DNA of 64,000 bases from Thermoanaerobaculia bacterium (GCA_036376245.1 DASVAS010000063.1:27798-91797), one strand, 5' to 3'; shown: positions 9,902-57,672, counted from the stretch's first letter. Translations and numbers: made by a program. Notes: a model not told the origin generated them from the letters alone.

Positions 9902-9913
9902 GGCGTCGCCTCC

Positions 9914-11164: not shown

Positions 11165-11216
11165 GACTACCTCCGTTGTGGACCGCGGGCGGAAACTTGC
11201 CGAGGAGAAGCTGCGC

Positions 11217-11250
11217 GCGCCTCCGGCCGCCACAGGGAAGCCGGAGGCGC
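11217..11250 (-). terminator. GC-rich 11-bp stem-loop after the fulvocin-like gene (possible attenuator/partial terminator, no U-tract)
   Basis: gcgcctccggc (11217-11227) pairs perfectly with gccggaggcgc (11240-11250) around a 12-nt loop. The structure lies in the 94-nt gap between 11259 and 11164. Confidence 0.3.
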
Positions 11251-11258
11251 CGTTTGCA

Positions 11259-31670: not shown

Positions 31671-31720
31671 GTCCGATCCTCCTGAGCAACAGGTTAGACA
31701 CGAGAAGCGCTCTTCCGGAA

Positions 31721-31948
31721 AGCCGGGCGGTTCGTCCCGACGTCCGGGCGGTCCGTCCCAGCGGGTGGAAGGTTCTACCCAATGGGTGGAGGGCTCTACC
31801 GAGCGGGTGGAGGGCGCTGCCGAGTGGGTAGAGCGCTCTACCCACTCGCCGGAACGCTCTACCTGATGTCCGGAGGGCTCTACCCGCTCGCCGGGACGTC
31901 CTACTTTGTGTCCGGAGGGCTCTACCCGTTGGGTGGAATGATCCGGAA
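31721..31948. repeat. About 11 tandem 20-21-bp units containing GGGT(G/A)-N8-TACCC dyads, including a perfect 26-bp palindrome (31822-31847)
   Basis: Example units are gcgggtggaaggttctaccca, atgggtggagggctctaccg, agcgggtggagggcgctgccg, agtgggtagagcgctctaccc, actcgccggaacgctctacct and gatgtccggagggctctaccc. The palindrome is gagtgggtagagc|gctctacccactc. The array is intergenic, 50-280 bp upstream of the start at 31670. Confidence 0.85.
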
Positions 31949-31991
31949 GGCCGGTAGGGAGCTCCGGGAGGAAGTACGGACGGTCCGGGAG

Positions 31992-34583: not shown

Positions 34584-34589
34584 CGGCTT

Positions 34590-37500
34590 CTACTTCTCCG
34601 CGCGGACGAGGATCGCCGTGGGCGGCGAGCCGAAACCGTGGAACGTGTGGACCCGCGAGAATCCCGCTTCGGCCATCAAGGCCTCCAGCGACGCGGAATC
34701 CAGGAAACGGAAGCGGCCGTCCTCCTCCAGCTCGATGAGACGGCTGACCATGTTGGCGAAGTGGCGCAGGGCCTCCAGCTTGCGGCCGGCGCGGGCGTCG
34801 CCGTCCTCCGCCTGCCGCGCCAGGATGTCGGCCCCTTCGGTGTAGAGCTTGGAGGGGTCGAAGTTCGGCCGCAGGGAGGAGACCACCAGCGTGCCGCCGG
34901 GCTTGAGGAGCCGGTGCATCTCGCGCAGGGCCGCCAGCGGGTCGTAGAGGTACGGCAGGACCAGCGACGAGCCGATGCGGTCGAAGGAGGCGTCGGGGAG
35001 GTCGAGCCGGAGCCGCGGCGTGGCCTCGCCGAAGCGGAGGTGGCGGAAGCGCAGGTGGCGCGCCGTGCAGGCCGCCGGGTCCGCCGGCGCGCCGGGCAGG
35101 CGGTCCTCCGGCAGCGCGCCGCCCTGCAGGAAGCGGGCGGCGCGGCTGATCTCGAGCGCGATCTCCACCTCACGGTCCTCCAGGGCGGGGCAGAGCTCGC
35201 GCACCCGGGCCGGCTCCGCCGGGTCCCCCCGCAGGATGGCGTGCAGCTCGCGGCCGTAGCCGGCGGCGAGCTTGCGGGCGGTGGCCAGGGGCAGCCCCTC
35301 GATGCGGTGGACCAGGGCCTCGACGCCGTGCAGGCGGCCGGCCAGGAAGTCGGCGATCACCGCCAGGCGGGAGACCTCCAGGTCCGCCACCAGGCCGCGG
35401 TGCTCGGGCGCGGGCACGCCGCGCAGGGCGGAATCGGTGAGCAGCTTCTCGCGCGTGCGCTCCACCGCTTCCGGCACCAGGTCCAGGAAGGTCAGCGAGG
35501 CCGGCGCGCCGCCCGCCGCGCGGCAGGCGTCCAGCATGGCCAGCAGGAAGTTGCCGGTGCCGCACCCGAAGTCCGCCAGGTCCTCCCCCGGCTGGGGATC
35601 GAGCAGCTCGGCCTGGCGGGCCAGGAAGCGGGGGTACTCGGGATGGTCGAGGAGGATGTCGTAGCCGACGTCGTCCCCCTGAACGCCGAAGAGATGCTCC
35701 TTCCAGAAGCCCTCGGCGTCGGCCAGCTCCAGGCGGCGCACGCGTCCCCACTCGGCCTCGCTCTGGCGGGCGAAGCGGGCGAGGTTGGGCTCCCGAGCCG
35801 GCCGGTCCGCCCCGAACAGGTGCTTGGACATCGACTCGGCCACCAGCTTGAACAGCTCGATGGCCTCGGCCCCGCTCTTGAGCACGTGGCCCGTGGCGCA
35901 CTCGAAGACCTCGCGCACGCCGCCGCCCGGCGCGTCCAGCAGGGCGCGCACCCGCGAGCGGGTCACCCAGCAGTCGTAGGTGCCGAGGATCCAGACCACC
36001 GGCGCCTGGATGCGCGCGAGGTGGCGCCGGCCGTCCTCCAGGAAGGCGAGCCCGCCCTCCATGGCCTGCCCGTAGAGGGCGTCGCCGCGGATGGGCCGGC
36101 CGTGGATGAGGATGGTCTCCGGTCCTTCGCCCTGGCGGTAGACCTCGAACAGGTCGAGGCCCGCCAGGTAGTTGCGCAGCACGTCCTGGGCGTCGGGGCA
36201 GCCGTAGGGGGCGATCCACAGGTCGACCGGGGCGTCGATGCACTCCGCCGCCACCTTGCGGGCCGGGATGGCCGAGAGCGAGACGCTCACCAGCGCCCGC
36301 TTGGCCGGCCGGAACCGGCGCTGGAGGTAGCGCAGGGAGGCCGCCATGTCGTCCCCCAGATGGCCGAAGGTCCAGTTGTAGTAGGGCCGCCCCTCGGCCA
36401 CCAGCCTGGAATTCATGGTGCTCTCGCCCACGATGTGCGAGGCGTCGAAGCGCAGGGTCACCACCTTGCGGCCGTCGCGGTCGAGGTCGTCGAGGACCGT
36501 GCGCGCCAGCAGGCCGAAGACCTCCTTGCGCTTGAGGATCGCGGGGGCGATCACCACCGCCACGTCGGGCCGGATGGCGGGATCGCCGGTGTCGAAGTTG
36601 GCGTCGATGATGCCGGCCACGGTGTCGCCCCGGCGGTTGCGGAAGCGGACCACCTCGATGCCGCCCTCCTCGTTGCGGCCGGGCCGGCGGACGAAGCTCG
36701 CCACCTTGCCGCCGAGCATCGAGACGGTGCGGGTGAGCCGGGTGGCGAGGCCGCCGCTGGCGGTGTGGCGCTTGAGCTCGCGGAAGCTGTCGCGCTCGGT
36801 CTCCCCCTCCTCGAAGCGGAGGCCGGCGCGCAGGGCGCCGTCGTCCAGGGCCGAGAGGTAGCGCACCGTAGCGCCCGCCACCTGCCGGCGCTCCCCCTCC
36901 ACTTCCAGCGTGAAGGCCGGCAGGCGCACGCCGGGCACCAGGGCGGTGGCGGGCTCCAGACGGACCGAGGCCCCGCCCTCCCCCAGGTCCATCACCGGCA
37001 GGCGCAGCCGGCCTTCGGGGGCGTGCGGGGCCGACAGCTCGCAGAAGGCGCGGCGCGGCGGCATGCGGCGCTGCGTGCGGCGCTCGGTGAGGTAGATCCG
37101 TTCCGGCGCCATCAGCTCCAGCAGGCCCTCTCCCGTGAGGGCGATCCCCTCGAAGGCGTAGAACAGCGGCGGGTCCGAGAAGGTCAGGTAGAGCACCCGC
37201 GGCCGCGACGGCGGCAGGAGATCCAGGCGCAGGGAGGCGCCATGGCGGGCGGTGGTCCCGAAGGACACCGCCCGGCAGGGGATCGGCTTGAAGCCGCGCC
37301 CCGGCAGGATGGCGGTCATGGCCAGCTTCTTCTCCACCGCGCCGCGCAGGATGGCCTCGATCTCCGAGGGCTCGCCCAGGGGCAGCAGGTTGCCGGGGAT
37401 CAGGTCACCCAGGGCGCGCTGGACGCGGACGATCGCCTCGTCCATCTCGTAGAAGCCGGCGTGGGCCAGCAGGCGGGCGCGGTCGCGGGCCGAGACCTCC

Positions 37501-37820
37501 TCGAAGCGGACGCCGATGCCGTCCGACGAGGAGCGCACGACGCGGGCCGTCAGGGGGATGGGGCGGGGGTCGGTCGGGATCTCCAGCGCCAGGCGGAGGC
37601 GGACGTCCGGGGCCACGGCGGCCGGGGTGCGGAGGAAGGCGCCGTCGGCCGAGAGATCGGTGACGAGCAGCCCGCCGCCGAGCTCCGGCCCTTCCAGGAT
37701 GCGCACGCCCGCAAGCGTGCGGCGCCGGGGCGAGCGGCGCTCTTCATTGGACTTCCCCGCCTCCCAGCGGGCGGCTCTCTCCAGAACCGACGGCTCCCGA
37801 AACGACTCCCCTGCGATCAT
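34590..37820 (-). CDS. Multidomain protein: PilZ + PilZN/PilZ + alpha/beta-fold region + SAM-dependent methyltransferase
   Basis: 1076 aa. PilZ motifs are RRSPRRR...DLSADGAF, and a second set RRTQRRMPPRR...DLGEGGASV. The C-terminal MTase motif I is LADFGCGTGNF and the post-II-like motif is LKPGGTLVVSS. A GGGAGGG SD is present. Confidence 0.7.
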   Translation of the reverse strand: MIAGESFREPSVLERAARWEAGKSNEERRSPRRRTLAGVRILEGPELGGGLLVTDLSADGAFLRTPAAVAPDVRLRLALEIPTDPRPIPLTARVVRSSSDGIGVRFEEVSARDRARLLAHAGFYEMDEAIVRVQRALGDLIPGNLLPLGEPSEIEAILRGAVEKKLAMTAILPGRGFKPIPCRAVSFGTTARHGASLRLDLLPPSRPRVLYLTFSDPPLFYAFEGIALTGEGLLELMAPERIYLTERRTQRRMPPRRAFCELSAPHAPEGRLRLPVMDLGEGGASVRLEPATALVPGVRLPAFTLEVEGERRQVAGATVRYLSALDDGALRAGLRFEEGETERDSFRELKRHTASGGLATRLTRTVSMLGGKVASFVRRPGRNEEGGIEVVRFRNRRGDTVAGIIDANFDTGDPAIRPDVAVVIAPAILKRKEVFGLLARTVLDDLDRDGRKVVTLRFDASHIVGESTMNSRLVAEGRPYYNWTFGHLGDDMAASLRYLQRRFRPAKRALVSVSLSAIPARKVAAECIDAPVDLWIAPYGCPDAQDVLRNYLAGLDLFEVYRQGEGPETILIHGRPIRGDALYGQAMEGGLAFLEDGRRHLARIQAPVVWILGTYDCWVTRSRVRALLDAPGGGVREVFECATGHVLKSGAEAIELFKLVAESMSKHLFGADRPAREPNLARFARQSEAEWGRVRRLELADAEGFWKEHLFGVQGDDVGYDILLDHPEYPRFLARQAELLDPQPGEDLADFGCGTGNFLLAMLDACRAAGGAPASLTFLDLVPEAVERTREKLLTDSALRGVPAPEHRGLVADLEVSRLAVIADFLAGRLHGVEALVHRIEGLPLATARKLAAGYGRELHAILRGDPAEPARVRELCPALEDREVEIALEISRAARFLQGGALPEDRLPGAPADPAACTARHLRFRHLRFGEATPRLRLDLPDASFDRIGSSLVLPYLYDPLAALREMHRLLKPGGTLVVSSLRPNFDPSKLYTEGADILARQAEDGDARAGRKLEALRHFANMVSRLIELEEDGRFRFLDSASLEALMAEAGFSRVHTFHGFGSPPTAILVRAEK

Positions 37821-37871
37821 CCCGGTCCCTCCCGGTCCGGGGTACGGCGAAGCCGCGGGGAAGCAGGAGCT

Positions 37872-38966
37872 TCAGGCGCCGCCTGGCCTGCCTGCCACCG
37901 CGAGGTCCGCGAGCCGTCCCCGGATCTCAGCGAATTCCCGGTGGCAGTGGAGAAAGACGTCCACCAGCACCGGGTCGAAGTGCGTGCCGCGATCGCGCGC
38001 GATCCTGCGGACCGCCTCTTCGTGATCAAAAGCTACCTTGTAGGGACGACGGCTGGTGATCGTGTCGTATGCATCCGCAAGGGCCACAATGCGAGCCGCC
38101 AGGGGAATGTGATCTCCCGTGAGCCCGTGCGGATATCCTGAGCCATCCCAACGCTCGTGATGGGAGTAAGCAATTTCCATACCCATGCGCAGAAAGCTAT
38201 GTCCTTCAAAGCGTTCGATGACACCGCGCAGAGTGTCGCCGCCGATGGTGGGGTGCCGGCGCATGATCTCCTCCTCGGCGGGCGCGAGGGGGCCGGCCTT
38301 GAGGAGGATGGCGTCGGGGATGCCGACCTTGCCGATGTCGTGCAGGGGGCTCGACTTGTAAAGATGGTCCACGAACCCGGTGTCGATGCGTAGTTTGGAC
38401 TCGCGTCCGGCGGCCTCGGCGAGACAGCGGCTGTACTCGGCCATGCGCTCCAGGTGCTGGCCGGTGGCGTTGTCGCGCGACTCGGCGAGGCGGGCCAGGG
38501 TGAGGAGGGCGATGTCGCGGGTCTGGCGGACCTCCTCGGTCTTCTCCATCACCATCCGTTCCAGGTGTTGCTGATAGGCCTCGTTCTGGCGGATCAGCCG
38601 CGCCCGTTCGACCGCCCGCTCGACGGTGGCCAGCAGGTCGTCGCCCTCGAACGGCTTGAGGATGTAGTCGTACGCCCCGGCGCGGACGCATTCGCGCACG
38701 GTCTCCATGTGCTGGACGCCGGTGACCATCACGACCTGGATGGTCTCGTCGAGCTCCTTGAGACGCTGCAGGAGCTCGACGCCGGAGATGCCGGGCATCT
38801 CGATGTCGGAGATCACCAGCGCGGGCAGCGGCGGCTCGGCGGCGAGGGCCAAGGCCTCGTCGCCGTCCCGGGCGGCCTGGACGTCGAGAGGGAGCGAGGA
38901 GAGATACGCCTGGAGAAGCCCGCGGATGGCGGGCTCGTCATCGACGATGACAACACGTTCGTGCAT
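37872..38966 (-). CDS. Response regulator with HD-GYP domain (c-di-GMP phosphodiesterase type)
   Basis: 364 aa. The REC domain reads VVIVDDEPAIRGLL...VISDIEMPGISG...YDYILKPF. The HD-GYP motifs are PLHDIGKVGIP and HHERWDGSGYPHGL. Confidence 0.9.
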   Translation of the reverse strand: MHERVVIVDDEPAIRGLLQAYLSSLPLDVQAARDGDEALALAAEPPLPALVISDIEMPGISGVELLQRLKELDETIQVVMVTGVQHMETVRECVRAGAYDYILKPFEGDDLLATVERAVERARLIRQNEAYQQHLERMVMEKTEEVRQTRDIALLTLARLAESRDNATGQHLERMAEYSRCLAEAAGRESKLRIDTGFVDHLYKSSPLHDIGKVGIPDAILLKAGPLAPAEEEIMRRHPTIGGDTLRGVIERFEGHSFLRMGMEIAYSHHERWDGSGYPHGLTGDHIPLAARIVALADAYDTITSRRPYKVAFDHEEAVRRIARDRGTHFDPVLVDVFLHCHREFAEIRGRLADLAVAGRPGGA

Positions 38967-39041
38967 ACATCAGGGCAAAACGGCAACTACTTTGTAGATT
39001 GTACAGGGAACAGGCCGAAAAAAGGGAACCAGGGTCTCCGC

Positions 39042-42212: not shown

Positions 42213-42236
<24 letters not shown>
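41520..42236 (+). CDS. Uma2-family (DUF820) restriction-endonuclease-like protein
   Basis: Trimmed to the ATG at 41520 (AAGGGAG SD). The pattern NIFVYY...PDFFLV...PDLIVELLSPST...DRTEKKDLYARVFRTPEYYLYD matches the Uma2 PD-(D/E)xK core. It has a coiled C-terminal tail. Confidence 0.8.
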
Positions 42237-43640
<1,404 letters not shown>

Positions 43641-43692
43641 CAGGCCGGCGATCTTCCAGGGCGTGAACGCGGGGAGGCGCAGGGTCCCCTCC

Positions 43693-44082
43693 CTACTTCT
43701 TGACCGGCGAGATGGAGCGGATGTAGGCCGCCGTGTCGCGGATGTCCTGGTCGGACAGGGTCTTGGACCAGCCGAGCATGCGCGGGGAAAGGCCGAGAGC
43801 CGGGCCGCCGTCGCGGATCACCACGTAGAGCTCCCAGTCGCTCCGTTTGGGCGTCACGGCCCTGAGGTCGGCCGGCGGCGGCTTGATGGGCAGCGTGCCG
43901 CGGCCGTCGCCCGTCTCGCCGTGGCACAGGGCGCAGCTCTTGGAGTAGAGCGGCTTGCCGCGCCTGGCGTCGCCCTTGAGCTTGAACCCGGGCGGCTCCG
44001 GCGGGGCCGCCCAGGCGGAAAGGACCGCGGCCGCCCCGGCGAGGGCGGCCAGAGAGAAGCGGAAAAAAAACTTCGTCTTCAA
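43693..44082 (-). CDS. Periplasmic mono-haem c-type cytochrome
   Basis: Track ORF 43693-44244 was trimmed to the in-frame TTG at 44082, which overlaps the TGA of the upstream peptide gene (TTGA). The signal is (M)KTKFFFRFSLAALAGAAAVLSAWA and the haem motif is CALCH. Confidence 0.75.
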   Translation of the reverse strand: MKTKFFFRFSLAALAGAAAVLSAWAAPPEPPGFKLKGDARRGKPLYSKSCALCHGETGDGRGTLPIKPPPADLRAVTPKRSDWELYVVIRDGGPALGLSPRMLGWSKTLSDQDIRDTAAYIRSISPVKK

Positions 44083-44309
44083 CGCGCTTCGAGAGCCAGC
44101 GAGTCGCGGAGCTGCCGGCGCAGGGCCGCCATCTGGAACACGGAGCTCTCGCTGGGGTCGCCGTCGCCGCGGGTGGCCTGGCCGCACTCCAGCTCGTTGT
44201 CGGGATCTCCCCCCTCCTGCGAGTCGCGGGTGGCCTGGCCGCACATCTCGAACCCGGGCCGGGCGACGGGGGAAAGGTCGATCATCAGGTCCCTCGATTG
44301 AAAGCTCAT
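44079..44309 (-). CDS. Small acidic peptide, paralog 1 (76 aa) of the kinase-associated peptide family
   Basis: The sequence is MSFQSRDLMIDLSPVARPGFEMCGQATRDSQEGGDPDNELECGQATRGDGDPSESSVFQMAALRRQLRDSLALEAR. The strong SD AGGAGGAG directly precedes ATGATG. The N- and C-termini are shared with 52412-52669. The longer track form (105 aa from 44396) is disfavoured because the paralog lacks that extension. Confidence 0.65.
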   Translation of the reverse strand: MSFQSRDLMIDLSPVARPGFEMCGQATRDSQEGGDPDNELECGQATRGDGDPSESSVFQMAALRRQLRDSLALEAR

Positions 44310-44400: not shown

Positions 44401-47970
<3,570 letters not shown>

Positions 47971-48135
47971 CTCCCCTCAGGCGCTTCGGGATTTTTGACG
48001 CCACCGCTGGAGAAAAACGGCGGTTCCGGATTATGATCACGCACGAGCAGAACGCGTAAATTTTGTCGCACCTTCAACACCGGCTGTCCGCTCCGCCGCA
48101 ACCGGGAGTTGACGCCACTTAACTCATAGGTTAAT

Positions 48136-48561
48136 ATGCGCCTCAGGGTGGTACGCCGTGGGTTGTGGACGGTTCTTGCGGTCTGCAACGAACGAGGGAA
48201 CTGTCCGCTCCTCGATTTCCTGTACGAAGGCTCGACTTCTACGCCCTGGGGACTGCAGCCGAAAGGCCCCGTGGCGAGCCAGAAAGTGAGGATGCTGGCC
48301 CGTCTGGCGGGAATCGCGGTGAACGGTCCACCCCGGAATCCGAAGATCTGCCACCAGATCGAAGTCGATCTCTGGCAGGTGGAGCTGGGGAGGGTTCGCA
48401 TTCTGTGGTTCTACGACCAGGGGCGAGTCGTGATCCTGTCGCACGGGTTCCTGAAGCAGACGACGAAGACGCCTGAGGCCGAGAAGCAGACCGCTCGTGA
48501 GGCTCTCAGGCGATACCGGGAGGCCAAGGCCAGGAATCAGCTTCGTATCCTGGAGGACTGA
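48136..48561 (+). CDS. RelE/ParE-superfamily toxin (HigB / Gp49-like)
   Basis: 141-aa ORF with the pattern ...CPLLDFL...ICHQIEVDLWQVELGRVRILWFYDQGRVVILSHGFLKQTTKTPEAE typical of Gp49/HigB-like toxins. It lies 1 nt before an XRE antitoxin gene. The exact start is uncertain. Confidence 0.7.
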   Translation: MRLRVVRRGLWTVLAVCNERGNCPLLDFLYEGSTSTPWGLQPKGPVASQKVRMLARLAGIAVNGPPRNPKICHQIEVDLWQVELGRVRILWFYDQGRVVILSHGFLKQTTKTPEAEKQTAREALRRYREAKARNQLRILED

Positions 48562-48562
48562 G

Positions 48563-48889
48563 ATGAGCGAGAAGAGCTTCGCATCCCTTTTCGAGGCCGC
48601 TGAACGCCATGACGAATACTGGACAGAGCGGGCCATCGCCGAGTTCACCGAGGATCTCTGCCGCTGGATGGAGACGCGGAAGATCTCCCAGGCCGACCTC
48701 GCGTCGGCGGCCGGCGTTTCCCAGGCCTACATCTCGAAGGTGCTGAAAGGAAACGTCAACTTCACCCTCGCGACCATGACCAAGCTGGCTCGTGCCGTGG
48801 GCGCCACGGTCCACGTCCATCTCTCGCCTCCGGATGAGGCGGACGGCCGGAAGCCGGCTGACAGGAAAGCCGCCGCTTCCGGCGCCTAA
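48563..48889 (+). CDS. XRE-family HTH antitoxin (HigA-like)
   Basis: The ATG at 48563 follows the toxin TGA by 1 nt. The HTH is ISQADLASAAGVSQAYISKVLKGNVNFTLATMTKLARAVG. Confidence 0.8.
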   Translation: MSEKSFASLFEAAERHDEYWTERAIAEFTEDLCRWMETRKISQADLASAAGVSQAYISKVLKGNVNFTLATMTKLARAVGATVHVHLSPPDEADGRKPADRKAAASGA

Positions 48890-51234
48890 CCCCACCCTTC
48901 CTCTTCAAAGAACGGCATCGCCGCGGCCTCCGGCCGGGCGAGGTCGGCGGCGAGGACCGCCACTCCCAGCTCCCCCTTGTAGAGGCTGTGCGGCGGATCG
49001 GAGGAGCGGGAGGTCTCCCGGGCGGCCCGCTCGGCGAGGTCGCGGGCGCGCGCCAGCCAGTCCGGACCGCCGCCGTGCTTGTGGAGGTTGAGAAGGGCGT
49101 AGGCGCGGCCGGCGAGGCCACAGCAGAGGCTGGCGTTGCGGCTGGGCTCCTCCCAGGCGTTCCAGGCCGCTCCTTCCGCCAGGGCGGCGTAGGAAGAGCC
49201 GCCCAGCATCCGGTGCGCCAGCGTCCATAGGAAGACGTAGCCGGCGCTGCCGTTGCACCATCCCGGCATGGAGCCCAGGCCCCAGCGGCTCTCTCCCCCG
49301 TGCCAGCGCCAGCGCAGGCCGCGCCCCCAGGGCCGGGCGCAGGCCCCCAGCTCGTCGAGCCTCTCGCGGAGCCGCGGAGGCAGAGGACGGCCGGCGGCCC
49401 GGCACCACTGGAGCGAAGCGTAGAGATAACCGGCCCAGCCATGGGCCATGCCGAGGACGGGGCGCTCCCGGTCCTCCGAGATGGGCGGAAGCGAGTCGAT
49501 CTCGCTCCAGAGCCCCGCGAGGAGATCGTCCCCCAGCTCCCTCAGCGCCCCTGGGACCGGCTCGCTCTCGATATCCAGCAGAAGAGCAGCCGCAAGGAGC
49601 AGACCCGAGCGGCCCAGAGTGAGATCCGGATTCTCGCAGGGCTGGCGGGCGGCCTGGAGGAAGGCGCTCACCGCCTGCCTCTGCACGCCCGGGAGGTTCT
49701 GGGCGTGCGCGATCAGCGCCTGCACGCAGAACGGTCCGGTGGCGGCGTGGTAGGGCGAGACCCGTCCGATGTCCACGGGCTCCAGCCCCTTCTCAGGACT
49801 GTAGAAGCTCTCGTCCGCGTCCCCGGCGGCCACCGCGCGGGCGGCCCAGAGCTCGGCCAGCGCAAGCAGAGAGGGGGACTCGCGGGTCTGCGCGAGGCGG
49901 TACAGCGCGCAGGCCACCCCGGCGGAGCCGTAGTTGATCGACGCCCGGGGCGGCTCCGGGATGCCGCTCTCGTAGAGATCGCCGCCCGGCTCCAGGCGCG
50001 CCAGCACCCGCGCCAGGAGCTCGTCCGCCGCGGGGGTCCGGGCAGGAACGTCTCCAGGCGAGCCTGGCTCCGGAACGGCGGCGAAGGCTTCTTCGAGAAC
50101 CGCCAGGGATGGATACCGGCGATCCGGGTCCTTATCCAGAGCCCGCGCCAGGATCGCCTCGACCTCGGGCCAGGGCTCGACGCCCCGGTCCGCGAAGGGG
50201 AGCGGCGGCTCGCCGGCGATCTGCCGCAGCATCGCGTCCCTCTCCAGGAGGAAGTCGCGATAGTGGGCTCCGGCCACCAGGAAGTACAGGAGGGCCGCCA
50301 CGGCGTACTGCTCGCCGGGCACCGAGACCTCGGGCGGCCGCCGGCCGGCCAGGGCCGCCGCCGCGTACTCGGGCTCGAAGAAAAAGGCGATGCCGGCGCG
50401 TCCCGGACGGGAGAGGTCCCCGGGGGCCTCGTCCCAGCGGGCGTAGCCGAAGTCCACGAGACGGACGCTCCCATCCCCCGCCACCAGGACGTTGCGGGGA
50501 TGGACGTCGCCATGGAGCACTCCGCGCTCGTGGAGCCGGGCATACGCCGCGCAGACCTCGCGGCAGAGCGCCAGGAGAGCCCGCCGTCCACCGGGTCCCC
50601 GCCTTCGCCATTCCCAGGCCGCGCTCCCCGCCTCGACTCCCGGGCACCACTCCAGAATCAGATAGCCCCGTCCCTCGGTCTCCCCCGTTTCCAGGAGACG
50701 CGGGACCGGCGCTCCGCCCAGATGGCGCAGGACCGCCGCTTCCCAAGTAAAAGAGAGCGATTCGGAACGCGCCACCTTCAGCGCCACCGCACCCTCCGGC
50801 CCCCGGCCCTGGTAGAGATCGGTGTCCTCCAGCTCCTGCACGCACTCCCGCACCTCGAAGCCGCCCAGCGTCTCCCCCGGCCGCAGCAGAGGGAGGATGC
50901 CCCCGGCTCCGGCGGCGCCTTCCGGGACCAGGAAGCCGGTGGCGAGGAGCCGCTCCAGCAGGGGATAGGCCGCCTCCAGAGTGGCTTCGGGATCAGCCTC
51001 GCGGTCCCGGCTGTAGCGGATCACCGCCTCGACGATGGTGCGCGGCGTCCGGAACTGCTCCAGCAGCTCGGCGGACGGGGCGTCGAGGATGCGCGACGGA
51101 GCGCGCAGGCGGGGATGGGTGAGGGCGAAGTCCCCCTCCTCGTGCTCGAAGCGGCCGCGCACGTCCTCCGGCAGGTCCGCGACCGGGACCAGCACCGCGT
51201 CAGGCAGCAGCAGCAGGGGATCGGTGACGGCCAA
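48886..51234 (-). CDS. Protein-kinase-like domain fused to LanC-like cyclase domain (CCG zinc-site variant), with ~110-aa N-terminal extra domain
   Basis: Track ORF 48886-51774 was trimmed to the TTG at 51234 (GGGAGG SD, 5 nt after the upstream stop). Kinase-like motifs are ALKVAR, HGDVHPRNVLV and VDFGYA. LanC motifs are GMAHGWAG, PGWCNGSAGYVF and SLCCGLAGRAY, followed by SLYKGELG. Confidence 0.8.
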   Translation of the reverse strand: MAVTDPLLLLPDAVLVPVADLPEDVRGRFEHEEGDFALTHPRLRAPSRILDAPSAELLEQFRTPRTIVEAVIRYSRDREADPEATLEAAYPLLERLLATGFLVPEGAAGAGGILPLLRPGETLGGFEVRECVQELEDTDLYQGRGPEGAVALKVARSESLSFTWEAAVLRHLGGAPVPRLLETGETEGRGYLILEWCPGVEAGSAAWEWRRRGPGGRRALLALCREVCAAYARLHERGVLHGDVHPRNVLVAGDGSVRLVDFGYARWDEAPGDLSRPGRAGIAFFFEPEYAAAALAGRRPPEVSVPGEQYAVAALLYFLVAGAHYRDFLLERDAMLRQIAGEPPLPFADRGVEPWPEVEAILARALDKDPDRRYPSLAVLEEAFAAVPEPGSPGDVPARTPAADELLARVLARLEPGGDLYESGIPEPPRASINYGSAGVACALYRLAQTRESPSLLALAELWAARAVAAGDADESFYSPEKGLEPVDIGRVSPYHAATGPFCVQALIAHAQNLPGVQRQAVSAFLQAARQPCENPDLTLGRSGLLLAAALLLDIESEPVPGALRELGDDLLAGLWSEIDSLPPISEDRERPVLGMAHGWAGYLYASLQWCRAAGRPLPPRLRERLDELGACARPWGRGLRWRWHGGESRWGLGSMPGWCNGSAGYVFLWTLAHRMLGGSSYAALAEGAAWNAWEEPSRNASLCCGLAGRAYALLNLHKHGGGPDWLARARDLAERAARETSRSSDPPHSLYKGELGVAVLAADLARPEAAAMPFFEEEGWG

Positions 51235-51239
51235 GAGGT

Positions 51240-52385
51240 TCAGGCCTCCCGCCAGAGCAGGGCGCCGGGGGTCCAGGTGGCCGGATCCACGCCTTCCAGG
51301 CGCAGGCGCTCCACGGCGAAGCGCCAGGGCTCGCCCTCCCCGTCCGCGCGCCGGGCGTCGAGGATGGCCCGGGCCAGCCGGCGCGCCAGCCAGAGCCGCC
51401 AGCTCTCGGCCTCCCCCGCGCTTTCGCCCCGCGGCGGATCGACGCCCCACGAGAGCAGACCATCCCCGCCGATCTCGGAGGTGAACGGCACTCCCTGGGC
51501 CGGCACCCCGCCGAGGCGTTTCGCCACGGCCGCGGCGGCATTGGCCAGCGGATCGAAGCCGTGGAAGTAGGCGACGATCTTGTCGGGGCGCAGCAGGCCC
51601 GGCGCGTCCGGTCCGATCTTGAACTGGTAGGCCCGCGCGTCCGCCAGGGCGTCGAGCACGGCGCCGAACGACTCCGCGAGGGCCTCCGGCGCCGGGCTCA
51701 CGTAGAGCTTGTAGGTCGAGCCCGCCCAGGACGATGGCGCCCGGTCGCGCCCCCGGGTCCCCCAGCTCAGCCATCCCTCCACGGCGAGGCGGGCCCAGCT
51801 CCGGTCGAGCCGCTCCCGATTGCGTCCACCGGGAGCGATCCCGAGATGGCCCTCGACGGCCTCCGCCGAGGGCAGCGTCCGACGCCAGAACGGCGTCAGC
51901 GGACGGCGGTTGAAGGCGTAGAGGCTCCAGGAGAGGCGTGAGACGTCATCCACCGGCAGGGCCTGGGCATGGCGGAGGGCGGCGAGGGACAGCTCGGCGA
52001 TCCGCCCGTTTCCCAGCTCCTCCCCTCCTCCGCCCAGCAGCCGGAGGGCGGCGGCGCCCGAGACGAAGGCGTCGCCGTCCGCCACCTCCAGCACGCCGTC
52101 GGCCACCAGACGGGCGACGGTTCTGCCAGCGGCCTCACCCAGGAGGCTGCGGGCGTAGGCGGGGATCGGCCCCGGCTCGCGCAGGGTCAGGAAGAGAAGG
52201 GCCGTATCGCGGTCCACGGAGCGGACGCCCAGATCCGATTCACCGCGAGGCCGCAGCACTCCGTAGAAGCCGGGCTCGCGGGCGAGCTCCGCCAATGCCT
52301 CGCGCTGTCCGGCGGGCAGGCGGTCAAACAGGACAAGGTCGTAGAGCGGGTTCGCCCGGAAGTCGCGGGAAAGGAGCCCCGTCAT
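51240..52385 (-). CDS. HopA1-effector-family-like protein (candidate phospho-Ser/Thr lyase)
   Basis: 381 aa. The C-terminal half has STYKLYVSPAPEAL...AYQFKIGPDAPGLLRPDKIVAYFHG, which I recognise as HopA1-like family signatures. The assignment is from memory, not from a search. The gene is tightly packed between the peptide and kinase-LanC genes. Confidence 0.55.
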   Translation of the reverse strand: MTGLLSRDFRANPLYDLVLFDRLPAGQREALAELAREPGFYGVLRPRGESDLGVRSVDRDTALLFLTLREPGPIPAYARSLLGEAAGRTVARLVADGVLEVADGDAFVSGAAALRLLGGGGEELGNGRIAELSLAALRHAQALPVDDVSRLSWSLYAFNRRPLTPFWRRTLPSAEAVEGHLGIAPGGRNRERLDRSWARLAVEGWLSWGTRGRDRAPSSWAGSTYKLYVSPAPEALAESFGAVLDALADARAYQFKIGPDAPGLLRPDKIVAYFHGFDPLANAAAAVAKRLGGVPAQGVPFTSEIGGDGLLSWGVDPPRGESAGEAESWRLWLARRLARAILDARRADGEGEPWRFAVERLRLEGVDPATWTPGALLWREA

Positions 52386-52411
52386 CTACGACCTCGACAG
52401 GCGACGCCTCT

Positions 52412-52669
52412 TCAGGCGAGCGCTCCCAACGTCTCCTGGAGCTGCTGGCGCAACAGCGCGAGACCGGCCCCCCCGGGGTCCGGCTGGTCGTAGTAGTTGT
52501 CCCTCGTGCGTGTGCAATCGTCTTTGTCCTGGCTGACGGAGCAACCGCCGCAGTCGGGCGTGGGCGTGCAGGCGCCGCAATCGGGCGGCCGAGTGCGGGT
52601 GCATCCGTCACATGGCCCGCCCCCCTCACCCGACAGACTTACCGTAAGGTCTCGGGACTTGAAGCTCAT
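52412..52669 (-). CDS. Small Cys/Thr-rich peptide, paralog 2 (85 aa); candidate lanthipeptide-type precursor
   Basis: The sequence is MSFKSRDLTVSLSGEGGGPCDGCTRTRPPDCGACTPTPDCGGCSVSQDKDDCTRTRDNYYDQPDPGGAGLALLRQQLQETLGALA, with 7 Cys. An SD GGAGG precedes ATGATG. It lies 26 nt upstream of the HopA1-like gene. Confidence 0.7.
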   Translation of the reverse strand: MSFKSRDLTVSLSGEGGGPCDGCTRTRPPDCGACTPTPDCGGCSVSQDKDDCTRTRDNYYDQPDPGGAGLALLRQQLQETLGALA

Positions 52670-52750: not shown

Positions 52751-55700
52751 TCACGGCAGGGAGATTTCACAGATCTCGCCCTGATCGTCGGCGCGCACGA
52801 CATAGAGGGCGCGGTCGTCAGGGGCAACGTCAAGCCCGACAAAGGAGGAGCCCACGGGGGGCGCCAGGAGCTGACGGGAGGCTTTCGTCCGGCTGTCGAG
52901 GGCGAAGATCTTCCCTTCGTGGAGATAGACCAGATTCCGTCCGTCGTGGAGCCAGGTGGGCAGCATGCCGTGCCCGGTCATCTGCTCGTACCGGCGCGAC
53001 TCCAACGAAAAAAGGAAGATTCCGCGCTCCCCGGTGGTTCCGGCCAGACGCTTGCCGTCCGGCGACCAGGAAAATGCGAAGAAGGGGCCGCCTCTGGGGA
53101 TGTCGGGCAGCCGCTCCGGAGTCCGCTGCCGCAAAGGCCGGGCAGGATCGATCAACGCGGGTCCGGTGTACCCCAGGCCACAGACCAGCCGGCGACCATC
53201 CGGCGACCAGAGAGGGAAGAAGATCGGCTCCCCCCGGGTGGCGGTCATCTGCTCGATATCGCTCCCGTCCGGCGCGATGGTCCAGGCGTCATAGCGCCCT
53301 CCGCGGTCCGAGTAGAAGAGGATCCTGCGCCCGTCCGGCGACCATCCGGGATTGCGGTCGCGGAAGATGTCGTCGGTGAGCTGGCGGAGCCCGGAACCGT
53401 CGATCCGGGTGACGAACAGATCCTCCTGGGGAAAACCGGTGGCGAATGCCAACCATTGCCCGTCCGGCGAAACCCGGCAATAGTTCACCTCCCGATAGCC
53501 CTGGGTGACCGGTGTAAGCGGCCCGGTGACCGCCGGGCCATCGGGATCCAACCCCACACGCTCGAGGTACGACCTGCCCTCACGGGTGGCGAAGAGAATG
53601 CGGCGGCCGTCCCGGGCCAGGCTCATCATCCCGCTCCACTGCGACGGCGTCGTGATCGGCTCGGCTTCGCCTCGCGCTCTGCCCGTGGCTTCGTCAATGG
53701 GGAGGCGCCAGAGGTTCATGCTGCCTCCCCGGTTGCTGGAGAAATAGAGGTATTTCCCATCCGGCGACCACACCGGGTTCCAGTTGAGATAGTCGTCGTC
53801 GGTCACCTGCACGGCATCGCCGCCATCGGCCGAGACGGTCCAGAGCACCCGTTTGGCGGAGTTCAAGGGGACTCCCCAATAGGCGATCCGGTGCCCCCCC
53901 GGGGACCAGCTCGGCTGCACGGAATCGCTCGTGACCACAAGCTTGCTCTGTCCGGAAGCCACGTCCACCCGCCAGATCCGGCTGTCCGTTTTCCGTACAT
54001 CGGGCGCGCCGACACCCTCGGTCGCCACCAGGATCTCCTTCCCATCCGGCGACCATGCGGGGTTGTAGCCGAACCTCGTGACACGCTTGACCGACTCGCC
54101 CGTGGCGCCCATGACGAAGACGCCGCCGCCGTCCCGCTCCGAGCGGAAGGCGATCCGCTCTCCATCGGGAGAGAAGGCGGGATGAGTGTCGTCCACCGGA
54201 GAGTCCCCGGTGAGCGGGATGGGATTGCCGCCGCCGATCCGCTGGAGATAGATGTCGAGGTCCCCCCGGGGGGAGGTCCTGACGTAGGCGAAGAAGTCTC
54301 CGTCCGGAGAGAGGGTGGGGAACCACTCCCGCCCTTCCTGGTCGGTCAGCCGGTGGAAGCTGGTTTTGACCGGCGGGGCCTGGGAAGATCCGCCCGCGCG
54401 TCCGAGGAGGAGGTAGAGAACCCATCCCGCCAGCGCCGCCGCGATGAGGGCCGCGCCCCACCACCCGAGGCGACGCCGGCGCTCCAGGTCATGTTGCAGG
54501 GTGCCGGTGAGCGGCTGTCCCCGCAGCTCGCGCAGGATCGCCAGCGGCTCGTCCAGGGTGGGATAGCGGTCCGCCGGCGACTTCGCCAGCAGGCGCTCCA
54601 CCATCCGCGCCAGCACCGGCGGGACCTCCGGCCGGAGATGGTCGAGGGGCTCCGGGCTCGCCTTGAGGAGCGAGTGGATCACCGCCTGCTCGTGCTCGCC
54701 CCGGAACGGCCGGTGGCCCGCCAGCATCTCGTAGAGGACCACCCCGAGGGACCAGAGGTCGGCCCGGGCGTCCACGGTCTCCCCCAGGGCCTGCTCCGGG
54801 GCCATGTAGGCGGGCGTTCCGGCGGCGGAGCCGGTGCGGGAAACCGCCGCGCCCATCAGCTTGGCGAGGCCGAAATCCAGGATCTTCACCACGCCGTCGC
54901 CGGTGATCATGATGTTCGCCGGCTTGAGGTCCCGATGGACGATGCCGTTGCGGTGGGCCTTGGTGAGGCCGCGGGCGATCTGCTCGCTGATTTCCAGGAC
55001 CTCCTCCAGCGGCAGCGGTCCGCGCCCGATCCGTCGGCGCAGGGTCTCGCCGTCGTAGCGCGGCATGGCCAGGTAGAGCCGGCCGTCCACGGCCTCCCCC
55101 AGCTCCAGGATGGTGCACAGGTTGGGATGGTCCAGGGCCGAGGCCGCCCGGGCCTCCAGCATGAAGCGGGCCTTGGCGTCCGGGTCCCGTGTCAGCTCCG
55201 GCGGCAGGAACTTGAGGGCCACCACGCGGGAGAGCCGGGTGTCCTCGGCCTGGTAGACCACCCCCATGCCGCCGCCCCCGAGGTATTCGAGCACCCGGTA
55301 GGGACCGATCTTCCGCCCGATCAATCCCTCGCCCGGCACCTCCGGCAGCGCGGGCGCGGCGTGGGTTGGCGAACGGGGCAGATCCAGGAGGGTCTGGTCG
55401 CCGTCGTCTCCGCTCCGGGAGGTCTTCAGACCAGGGGTCAGGTCCCGGAGCTCCGCCAGCATCCGCTCCATGTCCGGAGGGCGGTCGTCCGGGTGTTTGC
55501 TCAACGCCCTTTCCACGATCCTGTCGAGAGCAGGAGGCACGCCGGAGCGGAGGGCGGACATGGAGGGCGGATGATGGTGGAGGATCCCGCGGACGATCTC
55601 GCGCTCGTCGGAGCCTTCGAAGGGGAGGCGGCCGGCCACCATCTCGTAGAGCACCACACCCAGGGACCAGACGTCCGCGCGGGCGTCGGCGGCCTCGCCC

Positions 55701-56242
55701 CGGAACTGCTCGGGGGGCATGTAGGACAGCGTCCCCATCGCCGTGCCCGCCCGGGTGAGGCGGGACTGGTCGGTGAGCCGGGCGATGCCGAAGTCCACGA
55801 TCTTCACCATGCCGTCCCGGGTGAGGATCACGTTGGCCGGCTTGATGTCGCGGTGGATGACGCCGCGCTCGTGGGCCTTGGCGAGGCCGGCGGCGATCTG
55901 GCAGGCGATCTCCACGGCCTCCGCGACGGTCAGGGGGCCGCCGTCCAGGCGCTCGCGGAGCGTCTCGCCCTCGCAGAAGGCCATGGCGAGGAAGACGGCG
56001 CCGTCCTCGGTCTCGCCGATCTCGTAGAGGGTGCAGATGTTGGGGTGATCGAGGGAGGAGGCGGCGCGGGCTTCGCGGAGAAAACGTTTCTTCTCGTCCT
56101 CGGGGGCGCCGCGCTGGGAGGCCAGGAACTTCAGCGCCACCACCCGGTCGAGCCTGAGGTCCAGGGCCTTGTAGACGATACCCATGCCTCCGCCGCCCAG
56201 GCGGTCGAGGATGCGGTAATGCGAGACCGTTTCGCCGATCAA
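52751..56242 (-). CDS. Tandem (dual) Ser/Thr protein kinase - TM - PD40/TolB-like beta-propeller protein (paralog of 44401-47970)
   Basis: Track ORF 52751-56908 was trimmed to the in-frame TTG at 56242, which overlaps the WS/DGAT TGA (TTGA). The N-terminus (M)IGETVSHYRILDRLGGGGMG aligns with LIGSTISRYRILERLGGGGAG of the paralog. Both kinase domains are intact (HRDIKPANVIL/DFGIARL and HRDLKPANIMI/DFGLAKL). A TM is followed by PD40 repeats. Confidence 0.9.
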   Translation of the reverse strand: MIGETVSHYRILDRLGGGGMGIVYKALDLRLDRVVALKFLASQRGAPEDEKKRFLREARAASSLDHPNICTLYEIGETEDGAVFLAMAFCEGETLRERLDGGPLTVAEAVEIACQIAAGLAKAHERGVIHRDIKPANVILTRDGMVKIVDFGIARLTDQSRLTRAGTAMGTLSYMPPEQFRGEAADARADVWSLGVVLYEMVAGRLPFEGSDEREIVRGILHHHPPSMSALRSGVPPALDRIVERALSKHPDDRPPDMERMLAELRDLTPGLKTSRSGDDGDQTLLDLPRSPTHAAPALPEVPGEGLIGRKIGPYRVLEYLGGGGMGVVYQAEDTRLSRVVALKFLPPELTRDPDAKARFMLEARAASALDHPNLCTILELGEAVDGRLYLAMPRYDGETLRRRIGRGPLPLEEVLEISEQIARGLTKAHRNGIVHRDLKPANIMITGDGVVKILDFGLAKLMGAAVSRTGSAAGTPAYMAPEQALGETVDARADLWSLGVVLYEMLAGHRPFRGEHEQAVIHSLLKASPEPLDHLRPEVPPVLARMVERLLAKSPADRYPTLDEPLAILRELRGQPLTGTLQHDLERRRRLGWWGAALIAAALAGWVLYLLLGRAGGSSQAPPVKTSFHRLTDQEGREWFPTLSPDGDFFAYVRTSPRGDLDIYLQRIGGGNPIPLTGDSPVDDTHPAFSPDGERIAFRSERDGGGVFVMGATGESVKRVTRFGYNPAWSPDGKEILVATEGVGAPDVRKTDSRIWRVDVASGQSKLVVTSDSVQPSWSPGGHRIAYWGVPLNSAKRVLWTVSADGGDAVQVTDDDYLNWNPVWSPDGKYLYFSSNRGGSMNLWRLPIDEATGRARGEAEPITTPSQWSGMMSLARDGRRILFATREGRSYLERVGLDPDGPAVTGPLTPVTQGYREVNYCRVSPDGQWLAFATGFPQEDLFVTRIDGSGLRQLTDDIFRDRNPGWSPDGRRILFYSDRGGRYDAWTIAPDGSDIEQMTATRGEPIFFPLWSPDGRRLVCGLGYTGPALIDPARPLRQRTPERLPDIPRGGPFFAFSWSPDGKRLAGTTGERGIFLFSLESRRYEQMTGHGMLPTWLHDGRNLVYLHEGKIFALDSRTKASRQLLAPPVGSSFVGLDVAPDDRALYVVRADDQGEICEISLP

Positions 56243-57672
56243 GCGCGCTTGTGTCCCTGGGGCCGCCTCGCCGCCCGGGCCCGCAGCTCTTCGAACTCCT
56301 CGTGGAAACCTCGCACGATGGCCTCGGGGTCCGGCACCAGCCCCGCGTCCGAGGCGAGCCCCATCCGGACGTGGCCGGCGTAGCTGAAGATGCTGATGCC
56401 GAGCCCCACCCGGCCCGACTGCGGCACCCAGAAGAAGATCTCCTTGATGGGCCTGCCCGCGAGGTAGAGCACCTCCCGGGGACCGGGTACGTTGGTCATC
56501 ACCGCCGTGGTCTTGGCGGCGAAGACGTCCACCACGATCTTCTGCACCAGCTCGGGGCTGACCCCCAGCAGCTTGAGGATGTTGTAGACCACGATGGGCT
56601 CGGCCGAGCGCTTCAGGCTCATCGACCGCCGGTGCAGCTCCGCCAGCCGCTCCACCGGATCCTCGATCCCCACCGGCAGCGAGAGGAAGATCAGGCCGAA
56701 CTGGTTGCCCAGGTCCGACATCTCGTCCAGCGACCGCAGGTTGACCGGCATCGCGGCCCGGAAGTTGAGGCCGTTCGCCTTCTCCCCCCGGTGGCCCAGG
56801 TAGCGCCGCAGCCCGCCCGTCATGGCCGAGAGCAGGACGTCGTTGACCGTCCCCTTGAGGGCCTTGCCGACCGCCTTGACCTCCTCCACCGTCAACGGAT
56901 CCGACCACGCGACCCGTTTGGGGACGCCCAGGGGGCCCTTGTAGATCGTGTCCGGATCGGACGGACGGAGCACGAGGCGACCCAGGGCGGTCGTGGAGGC
57001 CACACCCGTGACCATGGCGTTCATGGACTTGAACGCCTGGGCGGTCTGCTCGAGCAGCCGCATGCCGTCCGGCATGACGCGCTGGGCGAGCTCCTTGGCG
57101 GCCTCGAGGCCCCGGGGCGGCTTGCGGAAGAGCTCGGTGAAAGGGTTGTCCTCGAGATCGCCGTCGGGATCGGGCCCGGCCGGCTTCCCCACCGTCAGAT
57201 CGGTCAGCGAGAGCAGCACCAGCAGGAGGGCCATGCCGTCCCCGATGCAGTGATGGAGGCGGGCCATCAGGACGCAGCCCTGGCCCTTGTAGCGCTCCAG
57301 GAGATGGAAGCTCCAGAGCGGCCGCTTCGGAGGGAGGGGATCGCTCATCAGGCTGCTGACGATCTCCCGCAGGACGTTGTCGTCGCCGGGGGCGGGCAGC
57401 TCCATGCGATGGATGTGCTGATCGAGCTCGAACTCCGGGTCTTCCTCCCAGTAGGGATCGTCCTTGTAGTGGATGATGTGCTGGCGGAAGCGGCGGATGG
57501 GCAGGAGACGCCGCCGCAGGAGGGCCTTGATCCGTTCGAGGTCCACCGGCTCGTCCAGCACCAGCACGCCGTTGATGATCATCAGGTTGGCCGGATCGTC
57601 CATCCGCAACCAGGCGTGATCGACGGCGGAGAGCGGTTCCCGCATCTCATCGGTTTCTTCCGGAGAGACCAA
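56239..57672 (-). CDS. WS/DGAT-family acyltransferase (wax ester synthase/diacylglycerol acyltransferase)
   Basis: 477 aa with the catalytic motif HHCIGDG and an N-terminal LSAVDHAWLRMD pattern. The TTG start is preceded by GGGAGGAGG. Confidence 0.85.
   Translation of the reverse strand: MVSPEETDEMREPLSAVDHAWLRMDDPANLMIINGVLVLDEPVDLERIKALLRRRLLPIRRFRQHIIHYKDDPYWEEDPEFELDQHIHRMELPAPGDDNVLREIVSSLMSDPLPPKRPLWSFHLLERYKGQGCVLMARLHHCIGDGMALLLVLLSLTDLTVGKPAGPDPDGDLEDNPFTELFRKPPRGLEAAKELAQRVMPDGMRLLEQTAQAFKSMNAMVTGVASTTALGRLVLRPSDPDTIYKGPLGVPKRVAWSDPLTVEEVKAVGKALKGTVNDVLLSAMTGGLRRYLGHRGEKANGLNFRAAMPVNLRSLDEMSDLGNQFGLIFLSLPVGIEDPVERLAELHRRSMSLKRSAEPIVVYNILKLLGVSPELVQKIVVDVFAAKTTAVMTNVPGPREVLYLAGRPIKEIFFWVPQSGRVGLGISIFSYAGHVRMGLASDAGLVPDPEAIVRGFHEEFEELRARAARRPQGHKRA

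Follow-up and report, generated by a model that had tools for sequence, protein, structure and literature searches.

A three-gene cassette was analyzed in a 64,000-nucleotide stretch of DNA (the window) from a Thermoanaerobaculia bacterium (GCA_036376245.1 DASVAS010000063.1:27798-91797). The cassette probably encodes a lanthipeptide-type pathway for a peptide made on the ribosome and modified after translation (RiPP), with a split, LanL-like synthetase. A Cys-rich precursor peptide is followed by a putative stand-alone lyase of the LanY/HopA1 type and by a protein in which a predicted RiPP recognition element (RRE)-like domain, a Ser/Thr kinase and a LanC-type cyclase are fused. Genes and domains were delineated as follows, with positions counted in the window and lengths in amino acids (aa).

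52412..52669, minus strand: precursor peptide A, 85 aa (open reading frame (ORF) and start-site reading)
51240..52385, minus strand: putative stand-alone LanY/HopA1-like phosphoSer/Thr lyase, 381 aa (AlphaFold2 model and Foldseek)
48886..51234, minus strand: kinase-LanC fusion, 782 aa (Pfam, NCBIfam)
50920..51234, minus strand: predicted RRE-like domain (PqqD-type winged helix), fusion residues 1-105 (AlphaFold2 and Foldseek)
50035..50817, minus strand: Ser/Thr protein-kinase domain, fusion residues ~140-400 (Pfam Pkinase, conserved motifs)
48886..49941, minus strand: LanC-type cyclase domain, fusion residues 432-782 (Pfam LANC_like, zinc ligands)

Peptide A starts in a GTG-ATG-ATG run, with GGAGG 5 nucleotides (nt) ahead of the second ATG, and its stop is separated from the 381-aa gene by a 26-nt gap. 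The fusion starts with TTG, 5 nt past the stop of the 381-aa gene, GGGAGG being located within that upstream gene. This start is supported by the agreement of the fusion N-terminus (M-A-V-T-D-P-L) with the homologue consensus MAITDPL; in addition, a database protein of exactly 782 aa was identical to the fusion. A longer ORF of 962 aa, overlapping the 381-aa gene, comes from a mechanical ORF list and was rejected as a frame artefact. Three tightly packed minus-strand genes with these coordinates had been described in a first-pass annotation made from the sequence alone, and ORF and start-site reading confirmed them; each of the motifs named there was found (HGDVHPRNVLV, VDFGYA, GMAHGWAG, GWCNGSAG, LCCGLAG, YKLYVSP and RPDKIVAYF).

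Distribution of the cassette was scanned using one genome per species, resulting in 79 loci. Most belonged to Thermoanaerobaculia or Holophagales, and at least eight phyla were represented overall; the other carriers were Chloroflexota, Armatimonadota, Gemmatimonadota, Eremiobacterota, Actinomycetota, Planctomycetota, Terriglobales and one alphaproteobacterium. The order peptide-lyase-fusion recurred across these genomes, which argues against chance. The fusion followed the lyase in 64 of the 65 loci with enough downstream DNA, and in at least 59 of 76 loci a peptide of the family was detected by pattern match, ending no more than 450 nt upstream (median gap 44 nt); a few further peptides, including ones with GTG or TTG starts, were recognized on manual reading. 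The adjacent Cys/Ser/Thr-rich peptide anticipated from the single locus is thus a recurrent feature. Clustering of ORFs over all loci yielded nothing else that was conserved, including no transporter or protease.

In the fusion, Pfam domains Pkinase (residues 161-327) and LANC_like (residues 432-777, E = 1e-21) were identified. The best NCBIfam match was LanL (NF038150), with model positions 241-810 of 851 covered at 154 bits (cut-off 650); since positions 1-240 were not matched, the lyase-bearing part of LanL is absent from the fusion. The LanKC model NF038151 reached 89.6 bits (cut-off 575), TIGR03897 matched the cyclase portion only, and Pfam gave no match to the LanM dehydratase domain PF13575. 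The PDB sequences closest to the kinase domain were PknB-type kinases. Among 69 homologues from the fetched loci, drawn from several phyla, kinase residues K153, H241-x-D243, N248 and D261-F-G and cyclase residues H598, C660 and C704-C705 were essentially invariant. Following alignment to human LanCL1/2, GMAHGWAG fell on the catalytic His and GWCNGSAG on the first zinc Cys, while LCCGLAG aligned with ICHGTAG/LCHGSAG of LanCL2/1, that is, with CCG for CHG; Cys thus replaces His as the third zinc ligand. CCG was kept in 59 of 60 aligned fusion homologues. Domain matches, alignment and family conservation together bear out the kinase fused to a C-terminal LanC(CCG) domain that had been read from the motifs. 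The CCG site is regarded as a distinctive mark of promiscuous, substrate-tolerant ProcM-like cyclases (PMC8524650).

Fusion residues 1-105 were modeled with AlphaFold2 (pLDDT 86). The model has the order beta-beta-alpha-beta-beta-alpha-alpha-alpha-beta and passed a test for a winged helix (three beta strands plus three helices). Its Foldseek matches were nearly all RREs (TigE, PqqD, leader-bound TbiB1, TglI, ThcOx, MibB, TbtB and MccB), with E-values of 2.5e-3 to 0.1 and target TM-scores of 0.67-0.73 for the small RREs PqqD and TbiB1. The domain is accordingly predicted to fold like an RRE and not to be a lyase remnant. A PqqD-like winged helix, N-terminally fused to the modifying enzyme, would be shared with RRE-dependent enzymes such as LanB, lasso B1 and PqqD. 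Lanthipeptide enzymes of classes II-IV are regarded as RRE-independent (PMC7470986); if the prediction is true, this would be the first kinase-type (kinase-cyclase) lanthipeptide system bearing an RRE.

The 381-aa protein had no Pfam or NCBIfam match (E up to 10 and up to 1, respectively), a profile of its family (30 homologues) matched nothing among PDB sequences at E up to 10, and the best 150 matches from a representative-library search were all close family members, with no bridge to HopA1. Because direct searches with hidden Markov models (HMMs) failed, the link to HopA1 was drawn from structure and from a scan of relatives. An AlphaFold2 model based on 30 homologues (pLDDT 89.2, pTM 0.87) was compared to the PDB using Foldseek. 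The top match was LxmY, which is the lyase component of LxmKY, the class V dehydratase of lexapeptide (E = 2.6e-8; 186 columns at 22% identity), followed by HopA1 of P. syringae (4RSX, E = 4.6e-7; 4RSW, E = 4.3e-6). Next ranked the lyase domains of class IV CuvL and class III SalKC, ThurKC and PneKC, and then the phosphothreonine lyases OspF and SpvC. When relatives were scanned singly, Pfam HopA1 (PF17914) was matched weakly in 8 of 88 (best E = 9.5e-5) and RamC_N, the lyase domain of LanKC, in 5 of 88, again weakly. The HopA1 assignment in the first-pass annotation was therefore not recovered by direct HMM search but stood by structure (LxmY, HopA1) and by the weak matches in relatives.

Across 150 representatives of the lyase, Y156, W205, K226, Y228, K256, R266, D268, G314, S328 and R330 were invariant and K269 and Y273 nearly so. 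The spacing K226-30-K256-10-R266-7-Y273 is close to R187-32-K219-10-R229-7-Y236 in CaoY, the latter four residues being equivalent to K104, K136, R148 and Y158 of SpvC (PMC9486802); K226, K256, R266 and Y273 are hence the candidate catalytic set. Together, the model and the scan of relatives support a stand-alone LanY/HopA1-like lyase with its predicted catalytic domain at residues ~190-381. The first ~110 residues have the same order of secondary structure as the RRE-like domain of the fusion, and the full-length model matched TigE weakly (Foldseek rank 41), so that they too may form an RRE-like domain. In a profile-profile comparison, the two N-terminal domains were colinear, at a non-significant E-value of 0.21, and a paralogous relationship is offered as a suggestion. 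The lyase family comprises 1,554 clusters at 50% identity (E <= 0.001); its named top matches were annotated as 'hypothetical' or similarly uninformatively, and a Pfam domain was assigned to none of them.

A second precursor gene is present in the window. Each precursor gene is located directly downstream of one of two paralogous genes for tandem kinases with a transmembrane (TM) helix and a beta-propeller, the only two such genes in the window.

52751..56242, minus strand: STK1, tandem kinase/TM helix/PD40 beta-propeller, directly upstream of peptide A (Pfam)
44401..47970, minus strand: STK2, paralogue of STK1 (tandem kinase/PD40; Pfam, positional orthology)
44079..44309, minus strand: precursor peptide B, 76 aa (N- and C-terminal family motifs)

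Between residues 19 and 57, peptide A contains 7 Cys (C20, 23, 31, 34, 40, 43, 52) and 8 Ser/Thr. Its core consists of three C-x-x-C-[TS]-x-[TS] units and a closing CTRTRD, between an N-terminal MSFKSRDL and a C-terminal helix LALLRQQLQETL. Similarly, peptide B combines an N-terminal MSFQSRDL and a C-terminal AALRRQLRDSL with two CGQAT units; its orthologues are conserved and were located after STK2 in many loci. The family motifs are M-[AS]-F-x-x-[RK]-D-L-M-[IV]-x-[VL] at the N-terminus and L-x-x-L-[RK]-x-Q-L-x-x-x-L at the C-terminus. Both ends are conserved across phyla in the family alignment, in agreement with the Cys/Thr-rich peptide with two conserved ends proposed beforehand. Precursors range from ~56 to 282 aa, with up to 28 Cys. 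The long form, to which some Thermoanaerobaculia paralogues and the precursors other than the Thermoanaerobaculia short form belong, has a C-terminus that extends into a conserved ~70-aa coiled coil (VExxE...PxTxEExExLExKLxxALEEL). Cys accounts for 8.8% of the residues in the core and 0.09% of those outside it, a bias that likewise argues against chance. Of all Cys, 58% were followed by Ser/Thr four positions later (10-30% at other offsets), and this enrichment defines a repeat unit C-x-x-x-[ST] (CGQAT, CPDDT, CTLAT, CTGTT). Locus L046, the closest relative, is 93% identical in the lyase, 96% in STK2 and ~90% in peptide B, and 58% in peptide A, of which the ends are nearly unaltered and the core is rewritten. 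Hypervariability of the core is typical of RiPP precursors. No Pfam or NCBIfam family was found for the peptides, NCBIfam matches being spurious coiled-coil ones, and at least 44 matches from a profile search were all labeled hypothetical.

The C-terminal helix has the spacing i, i+3, i+7, i+11 (L-xx-L-xxx-L-xxx-L; 3-4-4). Leaders of classes III and IV carry a theta-xx-theta-xx-theta-xx-theta motif with i, i+3, i+6, i+9 spacing (3-3-3; PMC12328550). The likeness to a class III leader seen in the first-pass annotation is loose, the spacing being 3-4-4 and not 3-3-3.

Several variant precursors were observed. A long-form subfamily in Thermoanaerobaculia, located ~7 kb upstream of the lyase, has units of the CT[LP]A[ST] type, a striking run of ITTVTTVTTVTTLV and the complete coiled coil at the C-terminus (L035 691-1230, L037 64-639, L039 570-1049, L041 567-1166, L043 633-1124 and L077 502-1089). 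In L055 (Armatimonadota), 2366-4061, tandem precursors of 270 and 282 aa contain 28 and 26 Cys, respectively; following a tblastn filter, a LanC part and no kinase part was obtained downstream of the lyase, and the architecture may be a variant. In L060, at ~7700-7870, the upstream precursor seems to be broken, its N-terminal portion and its C-terminal coiled coil being in different frames, which could reflect a frameshift, a pseudogene or an assembly error. Finally, in a 7-Mb Acidobacteriota genome (L001/L004, 2355-3953), a 62-aa family peptide, MAFDSKDL...LALLQQQLRTVL, precedes a stand-alone 455-aa LanC_like protein with ~100 aa beyond the bare LanC domain and no adjoining kinase or lyase. 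This protein could be an RRE-LanC variant dependent on a nearby cassette.

From genes, domains, active-site conservation, folds and linkage, the following pathway can be inferred. The precursor would be held by its conserved ends, the N-terminal M-x-F-x-x-x-D-L-M-I-x-V strand probably pairing with the RRE-like domain of the fusion and the C-terminal amphipathic helix binding a second site, possibly the N-terminal domain of the lyase or the kinase. Core Ser/Thr would be phosphorylated by the kinase domain. The separate LanY/HopA1-like lyase would then eliminate phosphate through K226, K256, R266 and Y273, giving rise to dehydroalanine or dehydrobutyrine. Addition of neighboring Cys thiols by the three-Cys zinc LanC domain would close thioether rings, mostly from Cys(i) to i+4, or to i+1/i+3. 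One enzyme pair would serve several precursors, hypervariable A and conserved B among them, and in Thermoanaerobaculia every precursor gene is coupled to its own membrane tandem-kinase/beta-propeller protein. Conservation of both ends, combined with the RRE-like domain, makes two-site (leader plus follower) recognition plausible. A much bolder form of the proposal is unlikely to hold in full: a new synthetase class that grips both ends (leader strand on the RRE-like domain, follower helix elsewhere), with multi-ring products as small as peptides of ~60 aa and as large as 'lanthi-proteins' of 280 aa with up to 28 Cys, the Thermoanaerobaculia product being ligand or substrate of its own tandem-kinase/propeller receptor in a signaling pair.

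Several observations weigh against a lanthipeptide pathway of this kind. For the RRE call, which relies on structure prediction, Foldseek E-values were modest (2.5e-3 to 0.1), and Pfam PqqD was matched in just 1 of 40 fusion relatives and HTH_35 in 7 of 40, all weakly. The 381-aa protein has no HMM match to HopA1, its family profile matches no PDB sequence, and its catalytic residues were mapped by spacing and not by structural superposition. No conserved transporter or leader protease was found near the cassette in the loci examined. Unusually for lanthipeptides, Cys precedes its likely Ser/Thr partner, and the PDB sequences closest to the LanC domain are the glutathione transferases LanCL1/2.

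The order of Cys and Ser/Thr also fits a rather unlikely alternative, in which the peptides are modified without classical lanthionine rings, either by dehydration or phosphorylation only, or as metal-binding CxxC peptides for which LanC has another thiol-transfer role. The CxxC units of the peptide A core, with a weak zf-CXXC-like signal, would fit this explanation, as would the more protein-like long-form precursors of up to 280 aa with their ~70-aa coiled coil. However, the zinc ligands and catalytic His of LanC are invariant, and the strong enrichment of Ser/Thr at Cys+4 is as expected if both residues react together.

Another explanation, quite improbable, is protein modification or repair: lyase and LanC would act on phosphorylated activation loops of the neighboring tandem kinases, with the peptides as thiol donors or regulators. 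OspF and SpvC act on mitogen-activated protein (MAP) kinases, and LanCL acts on dehydroamino acids in kinases. The sequence proximity of the LanC domain to LanCL1/2 among solved structures is consistent with such a role, and so are the location of the Thermoanaerobaculia cassette between two tandem-kinase genes, with positional orthology conserved, and the lack of a linked exporter or protease. Against this, other phyla have the peptide without kinase-propeller genes in the cassette, a repeated register in the peptides contains the nucleophile (Cys) as well as the acceptor (Ser/Thr), and a predicted RRE-like peptide-binding domain is fused to the enzyme.

An ordinary class IV (LanL) or class V cluster, with a split that is only apparent through a frameshift or gene-calling artefact, is a very improbable explanation: although LanL is the best NCBIfam match of the fusion and automated surveys place any kinase-plus-LanC protein in class III/IV (PMC7268733), that match scores 154 bits against a cut-off of 650, 64 of 65 loci from different phyla keep the split, the segment ahead of the kinase has a predicted RRE-like fold and no lyase remnant, the 381-aa lyase has its own extra N-terminal domain and is closer to LanY than to LanL lyase domains, and the kinase, of the Pkinase type and fused to LanC, is unlike class V LanK. 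An anti-phage defense system was rejected as well, PADLOC giving generic kinase-domain matches only and none for the lyase or the peptide.

Lanthipeptide classes are defined by enzyme architecture. With class IV LanL (VenL, SgbL, CuvL; NF038150), the split synthetase proposed here shares a Ser/Thr kinase followed by a zinc LanC on one chain and, putatively, dehydration by phosphorylation and elimination. Unlike LanL, the fusion has no fused OspF-type lyase but a predicted RRE-like domain at its N-terminus, the LanY/HopA1-like lyase being separate; its third zinc ligand is Cys (CCG) where LanL has His, and its precursors are conserved at both termini, whereas LanL precursors have an N-terminal helical leader. 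In class III LanKC, the cyclase is without zinc residues; here C660 and C704-C705 are present and invariant. Compared with class III/IV precursors in general, the helix-like motif is C-terminal and the N-terminal motif is M-x-F-x-x-x-D-L.

A stand-alone lyase of the predicted HopA1 fold beside a kinase gene would be shared with class V LanK/LanY (CaoKY, LxmKY) and with thioamitide TvaC/TvaD, LxmY being the closest solved structure and the catalytic spacing agreeing with that of CaoY. In class V, however, LanK is a free, APH-type kinase and there is no canonical LanC, whereas the kinase here is a Hanks-type Pkinase fused to a canonical LanC. In addition, this lyase is not matched by PF17914, with weak matches in 8 of 88 relatives, unlike class V LanY; provided that the mapping by spacing is right, its conserved K226 takes the place of Arg187 in CaoY; and LanX and LanD genes are missing from the cassette. 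Class VI consists of a single-chain LanKC with a truncated N-terminal lyase in Streptococcus (PMC12328550), whereas here the N-terminus is predicted to be RRE-like and a full lyase is separately encoded. The CCG zinc site and the use of one enzyme for several precursors with hypervariable cores are shared with ProcM-type class II enzymes, from which the fusion differs in having no LanM dehydratase domain; the kinase/lyase logic and the precursor family differ as well.

As each of the tests for classes III, IV, V and VI failed on a defining feature, the hybrid that matches no canonical class, as posited in the first-pass annotation, is retained as a lanthipeptide synthetase of variant architecture. 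A HopA1-like lyase together with a phosphotransferase and a LanC-like cyclase has been proposed as an uncharacterized lanthionine synthetase (Eyles et al. 2021, PMC8153245), so that the general idea is not new. Those clusters were found via PF17914 and have HopA1 paired or fused with LanC, whereas here the kinase is fused to LanC. No prior description of the architecture, the RRE-like domain, the precursor family or its breadth was found in the searchable literature, which excluded subscription-only papers. New beyond the first-pass annotation are the RRE-like domain, the linkage to the kinase-propeller genes and the breadth of the family.

STK1 and STK2 each contain two active-looking Ser/Thr kinase domains, one TM helix and a PD40 beta-propeller. 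The recurring order is STK1, peptide A, lyase, fusion, STK2, peptide B; in relatives, the start of STK2 lies 40-60 nt past the fusion. Of 63 family peptides, 46 had a kinase-propeller gene ending no more than 500 nt upstream. STK2 of the window shares 68-96% identity with STK2 orthologues and no more than 60% with STK1 proteins, from which it follows that the pairing of kinase-propeller gene and peptide is old and maintained. The linkage is confined to the acidobacterial lineage; kinase-propeller genes were not found in the cassette of other phyla. Propeller and kinase divergence differed by the same ~9 points in STK1 and STK2, giving no signal of receptor co-diversification. It may be guessed that the kinase-propeller protein senses or regulates the product.

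Between the fusion and STK2, a Gp49/HigB-like toxin gene (48136-48561) and a helix-turn-helix antitoxin gene (48497-48889) are present on the plus strand. Promoter-like sites at 48008-48137 were found for this pair, and a promoter/terminator scan gave nothing beyond these. The pair was present in 0 of 79 related loci, where STK2 lies 40-60 nt after the fusion, which indicates that the pair entered the operon recently. Flanking the cassette are genes for a Na/sulfate-type symporter (42213-43817, minus strand) and a wax-ester synthase/DGAT (56239-57672, minus strand), the stop of the latter overlapping the TTG start of STK1. Since the symporter and DGAT neighbors recur in related Thermoanaerobaculia loci (16 and 8, respectively), the chromosomal position is conserved. 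A signaling cluster is located downstream of the cassette (29913-38969, minus strand), consisting of the following genes.

37872-38969, minus strand: response regulator with HD domain
34590-37871, minus strand: PilZ-plus-methyltransferase protein, 1093 aa
31992-34589, minus strand: hybrid histidine kinase
29913-31991, minus strand: 692-aa protein without Pfam match

The only cultured carrier found was Amaricoccus macauensis DSM 101730 (L066, 7419-11571), in which the cassette is located among mobile-element-like genes (AAA_25, SNase, ParB-N6 methylase, SRAP and DNA ligase) with no transporter or protease in the flanks. Its fusion is read in two ORFs that overlap (9086-10924 and 10789-11571); either a frameshift or a genuine split could account for this. 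With this cultured carrier at hand, experiments are feasible.

The layout, with a predicted RRE-like domain, kinase and CCG-LanC on one chain and a separate LanY-like lyase, fits none of the six described lanthipeptide classes. The family is common (over 1,500 lyase clusters at 50% identity) and occurs in soil and sediment phyla little explored for natural products. As Pfam and NCBIfam contain no model for the lyase or the precursors, the cassette either escapes automated mining or is wrongly assigned to class III/IV. For building peptide libraries, a promiscuous CCG cyclase that acts on cores of tandem repeats would be attractive. If the reading is true, recognition elements at the two precursor ends would be a first among kinase-type lanthipeptide systems and would alter precursor prediction and engineering.

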